In this document: piece by piece, positions 4,524-64,000 of the stretch
Layout: the number at the start of each line of letters is the position of its first letter
Numbering within the stretch: the stretch's first letter is position 1
Origin: Promethearchaeota archaeon
Lineage (GTDB): Archaea; Asgardarchaeota; Lokiarchaeia; Sigyniarchaeales; SOKP01
NCBI GenBank assembly: GCA_016840165.1
Contig: JAEOSU010000080.1
Span: forward strand, 150,036-214,035
Reading direction: 5' to 3'
Length of the DNA: 64,000 nucleotides
Notes under the pieces: generated by a model
The model's input: only the letters and a program-made list of their open reading frames with translations
The model's database searches: none
Told to the model about the DNA's origin: nothing
Position numbers and translations under genes: made by a program

Positions 4524-4600
4524 AGATTTCAGATTGGGGCGACAACGTCCTTGCTACGAGCAATAGCTCTAATCATTTGTCATAAGTTCATCATCAATCT
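4524..4600 (-). ncRNA. Box C/D methylation-guide sRNA; D guide predicted to target 23S G2251 (E. coli numbering)
   Basis: Minus strand: AGATTg-ATGATGA(C)-acttatgacaa-ATGA(D')-...hairpin ttgct/agcaa...-gttgtcgccccaat-CTGA(D)-AATCT; 5-bp terminal stem. Confidence 0.8.
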
Positions 4601-59191: not shown

Positions 59192-59443
59192 ATGATTTGT
59201 GTTTAATAATTCGAGCGCTACAATCTGATATATTTCGAAGTAGCAAAATTTGGATTTTTGTTATCTATCGTATGCGAATAAATAAAAATTAAAAAATTAT
59301 TATAAATATGTAATTATAATAATAGGTATAGTATAATTAAAATTAAGTTTAACATATTTTCGCAATAAAAAAAATAATCCACTTATATTATTGATAAATC
59401 TGATTAATCACTCTATTAACAATAAATCAAGAGAGAGTTATAA

Positions 59444-60124
59444 ATGGTAAGATGGACAGCAGATCATAATATATATATAAAAATTCTCTACTGGGGAATG
59501 GGGGGTTCTGGTAAAACAACAATTGTTGATACCTTATACAGATTAACTAAAGAGCAAAAGAAAGATATCGCGCCAAAAGGAAATTTGACTAAAATTTCAA
59601 TGGCTAGTGGTTCAACTCTTTATTTTGACCGGGGAATCTTTCAATCTACTAAGCAAAACAAGGTCTATTATCATGTTTATACGGTTGCTGGACAAAGTAG
59701 ATTCTCGCCTTTAAGAAAAAAGATTTTTAAAGGAACTGATGGCGTAATCTTTGTAGTCGACTCCCAAACACATTTTTTTGAAGATAATATTGAATCATTA
59801 AAAGAATTAAAAAATATAACTCGTGGCAAATTAATTAAAGAAATTCCAATGATCACAATGCTTAATAAACAAGATCTCAATGAGATTATAGGAGAAGAGG
59901 ATTTTAAACAAGTATTAAAAGAAGAAAAATTATGGTTTGAACCAGATCATGAATTATATATTTGGAATCCCATAATCTATAAAACTTGTGCTTTATGGGA
60001 TAAACATAAAGAAGTTTACAGGAGTTTTAGTGAGTGTGCAAGAAGAACAGGTTTATATCAAATATATGGGGATGGAAAAGCACCTGGGGGAGATACTTTT
60101 AGAAAAGATCCCCCCGAATTCTAA
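59444..60124 (+). CDS. MglA-like small GTPase
   Basis: YWGMGGSGKTT, TLYFD, TVAGQ, DGVIFVVDS, NKQD. Confidence 0.92.
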   Translation: MVRWTADHNIYIKILYWGMGGSGKTTIVDTLYRLTKEQKKDIAPKGNLTKISMASGSTLYFDRGIFQSTKQNKVYYHVYTVAGQSRFSPLRKKIFKGTDGVIFVVDSQTHFFEDNIESLKELKNITRGKLIKEIPMITMLNKQDLNEIIGEEDFKQVLKEEKLWFEPDHELYIWNPIIYKTCALWDKHKEVYRSFSECARRTGLYQIYGDGKAPGGDTFRKDPPEF

Positions 60125-60195: not shown

Positions 60196-60307
60196 ATAAT
60201 TTGATGATAAAAGGAATTCCCTGAGGTTGTAAAAATCAATGAAATCAAAATTAACAATGACCTAATTTAAATTAGGGATGAAATCTTATAGTTACATTGA
60301 TGATTAT
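60196..60307 (+). ncRNA. Box C/D-like sRNA with three putative guides; last guide antisense to 23S helix 69 loop
   Basis: ATAAT-TTGATGA-guide-CTGA-hairpin-ATGAAATC-guide-ATGA-16-bp palindrome-ATGAAATC-TTATAGTTACA-TTGA-tg-ATTAT. Confidence 0.65.
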
Positions 60308-60415
60308 ATAAACCTGCTCAACTCTCGAAACATTTTGTATCAAATTAATAATTTATTTATATTTTAATAAATTTAATAACAATATTCTTAACACTATAAA
60401 TGATGAAGATTTAAA

Positions 60416-60601: not shown

Positions 60602-61195
60602 TTAATTAGTTAAACTCATATTGATTGTTAGTTGGGGAAATATAAAACTAATTAACTTATTAAAAGCATCTAAAATTCCTTGACCTCTTAATGCTATGGT
60701 TTTATTTATTGAAATATATCTAAATCTATTTAAATCTATTAATCGAAGAAATTGATTGTCATTTAATCTCAAATCATTAACTAAGTCGTGCTTGTTAAAT
60801 GAAATAATAATCGGAATCTCTTGGATCTGATTCCCAAACATCGATTTTAATTCATTCCATGATCTTAGATTATGTTGCAGATATGATTGTCTTGAATCAA
60901 CAACAAATATTAAACCATCTACTCCATTCAAAGTCGCAGGACGAGTGCTAGCATAAAAATCTTGACCTGTTGCAGAATAGATCAAGAATTTTAAACTCCA
61001 ATCTGCTCCTTTAAAATTTAGAACTCCAAAATCAAAAAAAAGTGTTCGGCCAACGGAACTATCAATTGATTTTAACTTCTCGCCCTTATTAAAATAGGAA
61101 AATAGATACTTTATGGATGTAGTTTTTCCTGACATAGCAGGCCCATAATAAACCAATTTTACTTGTAATATTTTGTTTTTATAATCAAATATCAT
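60602..61195 (-). CDS. MglA-like small GTPase
   Basis: YYGPAMSGKTT, GRTLFFD, ATGQ, NKHD. Confidence 0.92.
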   Translation of the reverse strand: MIFDYKNKILQVKLVYYGPAMSGKTTSIKYLFSYFNKGEKLKSIDSSVGRTLFFDFGVLNFKGADWSLKFLIYSATGQDFYASTRPATLNGVDGLIFVVDSRQSYLQHNLRSWNELKSMFGNQIQEIPIIISFNKHDLVNDLRLNDNQFLRLIDLNRFRYISINKTIALRGQGILDAFNKLISFIFPQLTINMSLTN

Positions 61196-61202
61196 ATATT
61201 AT

Positions 61203-62099
61203 CTAACCCCACATTGACTGCATACTATCAAGAGCGTTAATTTTTTTACCATTTTCAATAACCAAGGAGAAATCTTCATTCCATTCTTTATTAATAAATG
61301 AAATGATACGCTCTAATGGAGCCTCTTCATAATCAATCGTTTCTAATAATGTTTTATTCCCAATCTTGGTATTAATCTCAATATTACGCAACAAATTTAA
61401 ACGAGAAAGGATAAAAAAGGCTCTTTTTGACGCAGAGAAGAATTTTTGCATTTCTGTTTTAATAATGTTTTTTTTCAATTCTTTTTTTTCAGTCTCAAAA
61501 TCTAAAAGAGTATTCATCAAATCTTTATCAATATTATCAAATTTTGTTTTTTCATTTAATACCCTCATCATTTTAGCTATAGCTTTCTCTGTGTCTTGAG
61601 AGATTTTTTGTAAGAAATTCTGTTCGAGTGTAAGGTCTATCTCTTTTAAATTTATTCCTTCTAATTCAATTTGACTTTTTTCTGAATTAAGTTTGATAAT
61701 CAAGAAAATTTTCATTTTTTTTTTTAAACTTTCTTTTATGTTAAAATGGCTATTTTTTTTTTGTAATATTTCAATTCCGATTATCCATGAATGAAATTTA
61801 TCAAATGTATTTAAGGCTTTTAAAGAAACGCTGCATGGGCATCTAATATGTGCTCTTTCAGAATTGTAATCAATATTTTCATTTTGGATCAGATTTTCAT
61901 ATTCTGATAGAGAAACAAAATCTGTATAAAAGACAAATTCTTTTCTAAAATGGATTAACTCAGATAGTTCAACTAGGAACTTATTAACATCCTCTGTGAA
62001 TTCTCCAGAGACTATAATAGGTATTCTGTTTAGAAGAGAGTAAAATATTAACGATGCGTCTTGAAGTTTCAATGTCTCGAGAATTTTGAAAAAATTCAT
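61203..62099 (-). CDS. Hypothetical protein, cDENN-like
   Basis: IFYSLLNRIPIIVSG....V..FL..L and WIIGI resemble core DENN motifs. Confidence 0.55.
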   Translation of the reverse strand: MNFFKILETLKLQDASLIFYSLLNRIPIIVSGEFTEDVNKFLVELSELIHFRKEFVFYTDFVSLSEYENLIQNENIDYNSERAHIRCPCSVSLKALNTFDKFHSWIIGIEILQKKNSHFNIKESLKKKMKIFLIIKLNSEKSQIELEGINLKEIDLTLEQNFLQKISQDTEKAIAKMMRVLNEKTKFDNIDKDLMNTLLDFETEKKELKKNIIKTEMQKFFSASKRAFFILSRLNLLRNIEINTKIGNKTLLETIDYEEAPLERIISFINKEWNEDFSLVIENGKKINALDSMQSMWG

Positions 62100-62112
62100 T
62101 TTCTCACCTTTT

Positions 62113-63114
62113 TTACTTAATTACAAGCTCTCCTAATAGCGTTTTGATATCAAAAGTTCTGTGATCCTGTAATTCCGAAGCTTCTTTTATCAATTTATTA
62201 ATTTTTTTAGAAAATTGAGGAAGAATAAGACGAATCAAACCTAATCGTTGTTTAGATTTTCCAATTTCAGTGCTAAATATTGATTTTCCCAAACCATATA
62301 TAAATTGAAAGGAATTATCACAATCAAGTAAAATACTATCAGCATTCATTTTTTTTAATAACCAAGCACATCTATTTGCTGTTTGAAAAAGTGAGTAACT
62401 CATAGCGGAAATATTGTCTAACTGATATTTTGGAAATTCATTAGTTTTGTGTATTTTTGATGCAATGAATCCACCTTCAATAGTTATATAAGCATATTTT
62501 AAGTCAGGAACAGCAGTGTTGAAGTTATTTAAAACTTTTCTCAATTCAATTGATATTCTCTCCGAGAAACTCAATGAAAAAGGAGAGAGTCTATATTCTA
62601 GATCATCATTTTCCTTTATGCTGAAACCTTGAATAATACTTTGGATTTTTTGTTGATCGAATTGAATAAGTGGTGGTTTAAAAGTCTCACCAGATGTAAT
62701 CAGAGATGTTTTGATATTTCTTAAGCACTCACCTGTTTGTAAAAATATCCCTCCGAGATTAGTGTCTGGCTGAGCAGTGATTGCTATGAAATATTCATGT
62801 CTATTATCTATTATTCCTTGTTCAATTAATAAATTATTAAGTGAATGGTGTATTGGACTATTGAGCGGAGCTATTAAAATTTTAGCTTTTTTACCCTCAA
62901 TCAAAATATATTTTAAGTCATTAGGATGGAGATGGATACCTACATTGAAAATAGCGCTAGTAGCAGAACTAACATTGAAGATTTCATCTTTAGAAAACCA
63001 TACGCCTGAGGATTGAATTGGGTTTCCATCTCTTTGAGTTAATACAGCATTTTCTACTCCCTTTAACTGTTTGATTTGATCTAAGTGAATTCCAATTTTT
63101 TCATTTAAATCCAT
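62113..63114 (-). CDS. Tandem double Roadblock/LC7 protein
   Basis: GVENAVLTQRDG.PI / AYITIEGG.I; SAMS; ILIEG; NLG, RLGLI. Confidence 0.88.
   Translation of the reverse strand: MDLNEKIGIHLDQIKQLKGVENAVLTQRDGNPIQSSGVWFSKDEIFNVSSATSAIFNVGIHLHPNDLKYILIEGKKAKILIAPLNSPIHHSLNNLLIEQGIIDNRHEYFIAITAQPDTNLGGIFLQTGECLRNIKTSLITSGETFKPPLIQFDQQKIQSIIQGFSIKENDDLEYRLSPFSLSFSERISIELRKVLNNFNTAVPDLKYAYITIEGGFIASKIHKTNEFPKYQLDNISAMSYSLFQTANRCAWLLKKMNADSILLDCDNSFQFIYGLGKSIFSTEIGKSKQRLGLIRLILPQFSKKINKLIKEASELQDHRTFDIKTLLGELVIK

Positions 63115-63452: not shown

Positions 63453-64000
<548 letters not shown>

Follow-up and report, generated by a model that had tools for sequence, protein, structure and literature searches.

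A Conserved, Structurally Expanded Box C/D RNA of Loki-Type Asgard Archaea, a Probable Methylation Guide for Helix 69 of 23S rRNA

Genomic setting and distribution

The window analyzed here is a stretch of 64,000 nucleotides (nt). Near its 3' end, an A/T-rich intergenic gap of 290 nt, which contains the element described below, lies between an Arf-family GTPase gene (59444-60124, + strand) and a 60-codon open reading frame (ORF) with no Pfam family match. No ORF of at least 40 codons overlaps the element. The 16S rRNA gene begins at 63454, 3.1 kb 3' of the gap, and runs off the contig end. The element is located ~3.1 kb upstream of the 16S rRNA gene wherever the latter is assembled (this window and the same-genus genome G008), and many matches in the family lie 3.0 to 3.8 kb from a contig end. 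The 16S and 23S rRNA genes are ~50 kb apart on one contig in G008, and the 16S rRNA gene is apparently also not adjacent to the 23S rRNA gene here. Small-GTPase genes flank the element, the Arf-family gene on the 5' side facing an Arf/Ras-like GTPase gene on the opposite strand, which occupies 60602-63114 (- strand) with two unassigned partners. Contigs of three metatranscriptome runs (5 to 8% of sampled words shared) covered only 59400-60000, the Arf-like GTPase gene, and have no bearing on the small RNA.

In an alignment of same-genus sequences, the conserved block starts with AGGAATTCCC (60212) and stops with AAACC (60314). The unit was taken as 60212-60315 on the + strand, which would correspond to an RNA of ~105 nt with ends deduced from pairing (Table 1). 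The strings quoted in an earlier sequence-only reading of the locus are all present in the window at or near the positions given for them and are included in the table.

BLAST searches of 60 relatives detected copies that were 74 to 87% identical in 15 same-genus genomes, two of which carry two copies. Of the 131 same-family genomes searched with a covariance model of a 108-position block, 89 gave full-length matches, mostly one per genome and spread over ten genera. Under stricter filters, the model matched none of 19 genomes belonging to three other families of this order. Searched against Rfam with a permissive threshold, the locus returned only subthreshold snoRNA look-alikes (E ~1). The small guide RNA encoded here by a Loki-type Asgard archaeon is real and conserved, and its gene, which was unannotated, occurs in at least 89 genomes within a single Asgard family.

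Two copies are also found in G011, G036, and G096, and locus L076 (G078:C77:38573-38764) contains two tandem copies, the second without its 5' half. With UUGG at the box D position and mutation in its guide, one of the two G096 copies (L074) is probably a pseudogene.

Table 1. Features of the element and of two further candidate RNAs (positions are those of the window unless a contig is named)
Feature	Positions	Strand	Observation
Stem arm ATAAT and "box C" TTGATGA of the sequence-only reading	60196-60211	+	Outside the conserved RNA; absent in relatives
TTGATGA (quoted string)	60201-60207	+	Present
5' hairpin AGGAAUUCCCU, stem AGG/CCU, 5-nt loop AAUUC	60212-60222	+	Stem covaries across genera
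CTGA (quoted string)	60221-60224	+	Present
Long imperfect terminal helix, 5' arm GGUUGUAAAAAUCA	60225-60238	+	Pairs with 60301-60314
Box C variant AUGAAAU	60239-60245	+	GA kept in 38 of 39 family sequences
ATGAAATC, two copies (quoted string)	60239-60246 and 60278-60285	+	Present
D' spacer CAAAAUUAACA, 11 nt	60246-60256	+	Decayed orphan guide in this genome
Box D' AUGA (quoted as ATGA; present)	60257-60260	+	Invariant in genus; AUGA in 32 of 38 family sequences and in compact Asgard forms
Internal hairpin, 6-bp stem CCUAAU/AUUAGG, loop UUAA	60261-60276	+	In minimum free energy (MFE) fold
Perfect 16-nt palindrome (quoted)	60261-60276		Present
Box C' AUGAAAU (60278-60284); bulge G60277-A-U, then GA, AAU	60277-60284	+	AUGA invariant in genus and family
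D guide CUUAUAGUUACA, 12 nt	60285-60296	+	Core 60286-60295 antisense to G1910-A1919
Box D variant UUGA	60297-60300	+	UUGA in 35 of 38 family sequences, CUGA in 2
TTATAGTTACA followed by TTGA (quoted string)	TTGA at 60297-60300	+	Present
Terminal helix, 3' arm UGAUUAUAUAAACC and U60315	60301-60315	+	Covaries with 60225-60238; U60315 pairs with A60224
Candidate C/D sRNA, stem UAGAUU/AAUCUA, UGAUGA, CUGA	4524-4600	-	D guide GUCGCCCCAAU
Candidate C/D sRNA, ~100 nt, stem AACUU/AGGUU	Contig C13:2409-2509	+	AUGAUGA, C' AUGAAAA, CUGA

Secondary structure

Covariation was assessed for 15 modeled pairs in an alignment of 40 sequences, with 500 column shuffles and controls in which the pairing partners were slid. 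In this alignment, which was fitted to the model and therefore favors the structure somewhat, standard pairs occupy 92.8% of the cells of the modeled pairs versus 33 to 56% with slid partners, 10 of the 15 pairs show compensatory changes, and none of the 500 shuffles reached any observed measure. A genus-level MAFFT alignment gave the same structural picture, although more weakly. The z-score of the single-sequence MFE (-1.26) is unremarkable, and the case for structure therefore rests on covariation rather than energy. Frequent U-G pairs, which would be A-C on the other strand, place the RNA on the + strand.

The terminal helix comprises ~13 bp, and helices 1 and 2 are paired in 89 to 96% of cases, with compensatory changes. 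In the internal hairpin, 94.7% of cells are paired and four of five pairs show compensatory changes. The stem of the 5' hairpin varies across genera as UAGG/CCUA, CUAGG/CCUAG, UUAG/CUAA, and AUUC/GAAU. In the largest sister genus, the 5' sequence GGAGU has no local partner and instead pairs with an ACUCC that immediately follows the terminal helix, with the compensatory variants GGGAG/CUCCC and GGAGU/AUUCC and a duplex energy of -8 to -12 kcal/mol, compared with about -3.5 kcal/mol for shuffles. This long-range pairing argues that the flanks are transcribed, the ends being placed by pairing; TATA-like tracts upstream do not fix the start site. A third K-turn considered in the outer internal loop of the sister genus was rejected, the nonbulged strand having UA rather than GA.

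The sequence-only reading had proposed a three-guide RNA of 112 nt (60196-60307) containing three K-turns, a model that was weighed here both as a gain confined to this species and as a new class. In its favor, this single sequence does have a canonical UGAUGA 13 nt upstream of a CUGA, and ATAAT (60196) is able to pair with ATTAT (60303). However, neither this terminal stem nor the TTGATGA assigned as box C is found in any relative, and the closest (87% identity) reads ATCATCA in place of the latter. The CUGA at 60221, assigned as a D' box and likewise absent from all relatives, is a chance product of the last bases of the 5' hairpin and the linker, and relatives other than the closest read CUAC, CUUA, CUAA, or CUCA. 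The first C/D' module is thus not conserved, and its spacer is the covarying 5' hairpin. Furthermore, the first D'/C' pair lacks a closing stem; instead, 60225-60238, previously drawn as a loop, pairs and covaries with 60301-60314, beyond the proposed 3' end at 60307; the conserved element extends 8 nt past that end. Guide 1 had been proposed as able to pair near U1939, but the site given for it, AAUUCCUU, is not in the 23S rRNA of this lineage, which reads AAAUGCCUU, and the longest rRNA match of this guide (8 nt) falls outside positions 1 to 5 and is reached by 25% of random 12-mers. A three-guide, three-K-turn class is contradicted by the comparative data, and the 112-nt model in either form is very improbable. 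Positions 60196-60211 are probably promoter-proximal A/T-rich DNA. The assignment to box C/D-type guide RNAs on the + strand is supported, with two guide positions instead of three.

Boxes and K-turns

The comparative evidence indicates that the element is a box C/D RNA of two-guide layout, with the 12-nt spacing of archaea. All 38 parsed sequences have a D spacer of 12 nt; the D' spacer measures 11 nt in this genome and 12 to 13 nt in most relatives. The GA cores of all four boxes are retained in 38 of 39 family sequences. In box C, A60239-U60240 form the bulge, and G60241-A60242 contribute the tandem sheared pairs of the terminal K-turn (G60241-A60300 and A60242-G60299), followed by pairing of A60243-A60244 with U60298-U60297. 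This bulge measures 2 nt here and would gain a third nucleotide on opening of the last A-U pair; most relatives have 3 nt. The C'/D' motif is closed by the internal hairpin, which makes it a K-turn rather than a K-loop. The same C' box is also found in Heimdall-type orthologues.

The features expected of archaeal C/D sRNAs are a terminal K-turn, an internal C'/D' motif, spacers of ~12 nt, a guide with ~10 bp of complementarity to rRNA or tRNA spanning the nucleotide five positions upstream of box D or D', and terminal RUGAUGA/CUGA boxes. All were found except the last, as the terminal boxes depart from this consensus throughout the family (AUGAAAU/UUGA). Positions 5 and 6 of box C are AA versus UG in the consensus, and box D starts with UU versus CU. 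In stem II, a U-U plus a G-C are thereby replaced by two A-U pairs, so that the UG-to-AA change in box C and the C-to-U change in box D constitute a compensated change. The identity of stem II matters for eukaryotic snoRNP assembly.

The fibrillarin-Nop5 operon and the L7Ae gene are intact in this genome, with open frames and no internal stops. A genome-wide regular-expression scan for other guides found no fully canonical four-box C/D sRNA. A half-module scan requiring a 10-nt rRNA complement did not discriminate (40 matches versus 33 to 39 in shuffled genomes), and a terminal-box scan yielded four candidates versus zero to two in shuffles. At least two other candidate C/D RNAs (Table 1) keep canonical terminal boxes, and the variant boxes are therefore a property of the RNA family rather than of the organism. 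The candidate at 4524-4600 had already been pointed out in the sequence-only reading; its proposed target, UUGGGGCGAC, or even UGGGGCGA, is not in the same-genus 23S rRNA of G008.

The D spacer of the candidate on contig C13 has a 10-nt complement to 16S rRNA near position 220 of the G008 gene. At two unrelated loci, C26:5110 (- strand) and C68:8300 (+ strand), box-flanked spacers have perfect complements of 12 and 11 nt, respectively, to the same A/T-rich segment of 23S rRNA, near 1706-1719 of the G008 gene; these matches may be due to chance in A/T-rich sequence or may represent further guides.

The D guide and helix 69

The 23S rRNA gene of this genome is not assembled, and targets were read from same-genus G008 and from two complete genomes of the order. 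The sequence-only reading had proposed that the last guide is antisense to the helix 69 (H69) loop GUAACUAUAA, and this complementarity was confirmed in the same-genus 23S rRNA, the loop being exact in all three genomes. The D spacer core forms 10 of 10 bp with G1910-A1919 through guide positions 2 to 11, and among random 12-mers taken from this window, only 1.2% match the 16S and 23S rRNA of the genus over at least 10 nt. A1913 is the partner of U60292, which lies five positions from UUGA, and the earlier assignment of A1913 by the +5 rule is thereby supported; A2256 of yeast, methylated as Am2256, is presumably the same position, given a constant numbering offset. The guide core is exact in 37 of 39 family sequences drawn from the 89 genomes, and one more differs at the last base, whereas the guide flanks vary. 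Complementarity and conservation together indicate that the RNA most likely directs 2'-O-methylation of A1913 in H69.

Loss of the D' guide and its helix 71 target

The D' spacer of this genome differs at several positions from that of the closest relative (three substitutions in the genus alignment). Its best same-genus rRNA match is 8 nt, a level reached by 25% of random 12-mers, and neither it nor guide 1 of the sequence-only reading has a convincing target in same-genus 16S or 23S rRNA or in 11 tRNAs (an incomplete set) predicted by aragorn. Most other genera of the family keep the D' spacer AACUAGACAAGG or close variants, such as AUUAGACAAGA in G127. AACUAGACAAGG pairs over 11 positions with the family 23S rRNA sequence CCUUGUCUGGU (G008, G101, and G127), and the +5 rule selects G1945. 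Among these three genomes, the guide is intact only in G127 and is decayed in G008 and G101. The target has stayed unchanged where the D' guide has decayed, which is the case for this species and most of its genus as well as for part of the sister genus (G101).

A Thor-labeled genome has the D' guide ACCUGACAAG and, in its own 23S rRNA, CCUUGUCAGGU. The family and Thor-labeled pairs differ together, such that guide and target covary at position 1948, and this covariation is the strongest evidence in favor of the family being a working guide. Judged as an H69/H71 double guide of the sR91 type, the element retains a D guide for A1913, whereas its D' guide is lost here and present in same-family and other Asgard orthologues. 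Descent from an H69/H71 double-guide family is supported, but a present-day double-guide function in this genome is not.

Helix 71 of family 23S rRNA (L022, L211, and L212; E. coli positions 1948 and about 1958) reads CCUUGUCUGGUAAGUUCAGAC. The Thor-labeled genome reads ...CAGG...CUGAC, and cultured-type Loki genomes and E. coli read ...CGGG...CCGAC. The change is a compensated base pair in a near-universal helix and is tracked by the sRNA guide. A helix 71 pattern that was too strict matched none of five Asgard records; with a less stringent pattern, the region was recovered from one genome.

Orthologues in other Asgard lineages

An exact-pattern scan for the C'-guide-D module (17 bases) across one genome per prokaryotic species matched at least 120 records. 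Among the 80 matches listed, 57 are archaeal and 23 are bacterial, the latter number lying, by our estimate, in the range that chance would give for a 17-base pattern. By record name, the archaeal matches listed are Promethearchaeota, Heimdall-, Hod-, Hermod-, Thor-, Jord-, Frey-, and Sifarchaeal metagenome-assembled genomes and "uncultured archaeon," and the module is thus found in many Asgard lineages. Both guides, together with canonical AUGAUGA/CUGA boxes, are found in Heimdall-, Hod-, Thor-, Jord-, Frey-, and Sif-labeled records. These compact orthologues share with the element a C' box (AUGAAAU/AUGAUAG), the D guide, an AUGA D' box, and the G1945 guide, but they are only ~60 to 70 nt, with terminal AUGAUGA/CUGA, a 5-bp terminal stem, and a C'/D' linker of 7 to 9 nt. 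In Loki-family copies outside this family, the long outer helix and the internal hairpin are already present.

In other Asgard lineages, the orthologues are surrounded by different genes, which argues against the element being a DNA-level regulatory element (promoter or operator) of its flanking genes and not an RNA gene. Its intergenic, A/T-rich position and its palindromes (60213-60220 and 60261-60276) would suit such a role. The long-range compensatory changes and strand-specific G-U pairs, however, indicate RNA structure, and a conserved 10-mer is exactly antisense to rRNA; we give the regulatory explanation almost no credence.

Proposed function

The observed sequence anatomy, family conservation, covariation, guide-target complementarity, and protein genes point to a structurally expanded box C/D methylation guide of ~105 nt in which the H69 guide is active and the D' guide is lost, an interpretation that we consider probable. 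Once transcribed, the RNA would form two K-turns, a terminal one from AUGAAAU/UUGA and an internal one from AUGA/AUGAAAU, closed by the hairpin. Each K-turn is predicted to bind L7Ae, recruiting a Nop5 dimer with fibrillarin, such that the RNP would assemble on nonconsensus boxes. The 12-nt spacer preceding box D would pair with the H69 loop (G1910-A1919), and A1913, five nt from box D, would be placed in the active site of fibrillarin for 2'-O-methylation. The other spacer would be the ancestral guide for G1945 in helix 71. As D' complementarity is lost in this species, we propose that the RNA now works as a single guide.

Alternatively, the RNA may be expressed and pair with H69 while its degenerate terminal boxes fail to recruit productive fibrillarin, making it a chaperone of 23S rRNA domain IV or a pseudogene in the making. 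The nonconsensus terminal boxes across the whole family, decay of the D' guide in this and several related species, and the clearly degenerate second copy (L074) in one genome are consistent with this explanation. Nevertheless, the retained GA cores, 12-nt spacing, and compensatory stem II fit selection for a working K-turn and Nop5 ruler, AUGAAAU/AUGA serve as C'/D' boxes in orthologues with canonical terminal boxes, and the guide core is nearly invariant (37 of 39 sequences). Loss of methylation activity is therefore unlikely, and the methylation guide is preferred.

As a methylation guide, the RNA belongs to an old archaeal family of H69/H71 double guides, within which it is derived, expanded, and now reduced to a single guide. 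Its novelty is modest, lying in the compensated nonconsensus boxes and the snoRNA-like expansion, as an H69/H71 guide is already known in other archaea. The family nevertheless provides a natural series, comprising a compensated box variant, a change from K-loop to K-turn, a longer terminal stem, and repeated loss of one guide while the other is fixed. This series could be used to test the requirements of archaeal L7Ae and Nop5 for boxes C and D.

Comparison with known systems

Helices 68, 69, and 71 are hotspots of archaeal methylation, and predicted sites are dense around A1912 (Dennis et al. 2015, PMC4644070). Ignicoccus hospitalis sR91 (IHOsR91) is a double guide of ~69 nt (Dennis et al. 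2015, PMC4644070, Additional files 1 and 3). Its D guide, AUCAGAGUUACG followed by CUGA, is antisense to the H69 loop GUAACUCUGA, and its D' guide, AACUCGGCAAG, is marked on the helix 71 segment CCUUGCCGGG (PMC4644070 supplement). The H69 register and both targets are as in the element and its sister genera, whereas sR91 has canonical AUGAUGA/CUGA boxes and a short C'/D' linker in its ~69 nt. The RNA in the window is longer (~105 nt), has AUGAAAU/UUGA as its terminal boxes, and carries a D' guide that is dead; its further differences are a 5' hairpin, an internal hairpin of 16 nt, and a terminal helix of 13 bp. In Sulfolobus acidocaldarius, the D guide of sR113, CUCAGAGUUACU followed by CUGA, pairs with the same crenarchaeal H69 loop (Dennis et al. 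2015, PMC4644070). This RNA shares the H69 register, which selects the A1913 equivalent, but has another D' guide, canonical boxes, and a compact length of ~59 nt. The sequence-only reading had described the H69 methylation as eukaryote type. As C/D sRNAs for the same nucleotide are catalogued in Sulfolobus and Ignicoccus, and the sites are thus also targeted in Crenarchaeota, the target is not specifically eukaryote type and does not represent an Asgard-eukaryote specialty.

The terminal K-turn (AAUGAAA/UUGA) resembles what we take to be the arrangement in the 5' stem-loop K-turn of U4 snRNA, namely, a bulge NAU, G-A/A-G pairs, and two Watson-Crick pairs. In U4 these are G-C pairs, and the RNA binds Prp31 rather than Nop5; the likeness to the RNA in the window is a structural analogy only. 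On a bolder view, the guide has been rebuilt in this Loki-type family as a snoRNA-like particle roughly double the size usual in archaea. It would have U4-like K-turns in which stem II is Watson-Crick paired, a closing helix of 13 bp, and, in addition, a 5' hairpin or an outer helix. Such rebuilding could reflect changed assembly or processing, through altered L7Ae/Nop5 recognition or an added protein, or a shift to chaperoning of 23S rRNA domain IV, a speculative proposal that we regard as rather improbable.

For the methylation guide preferred here, the eukaryotic parallel is one of target position. Yeast snR63 (Am2256) and snR75 (Gm2288) direct methylation at sites 32 nt apart, as are A1913 and G1945, but yeast uses two separate snoRNAs for them. 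Plants, human, and an alga likewise carry methylations at both sites. As the double guide spans Crenarchaeota and many Asgard lineages, yeast Am2256 and Gm2288 are most simply derived from an old archaeal guide rather than from an Asgard innovation.
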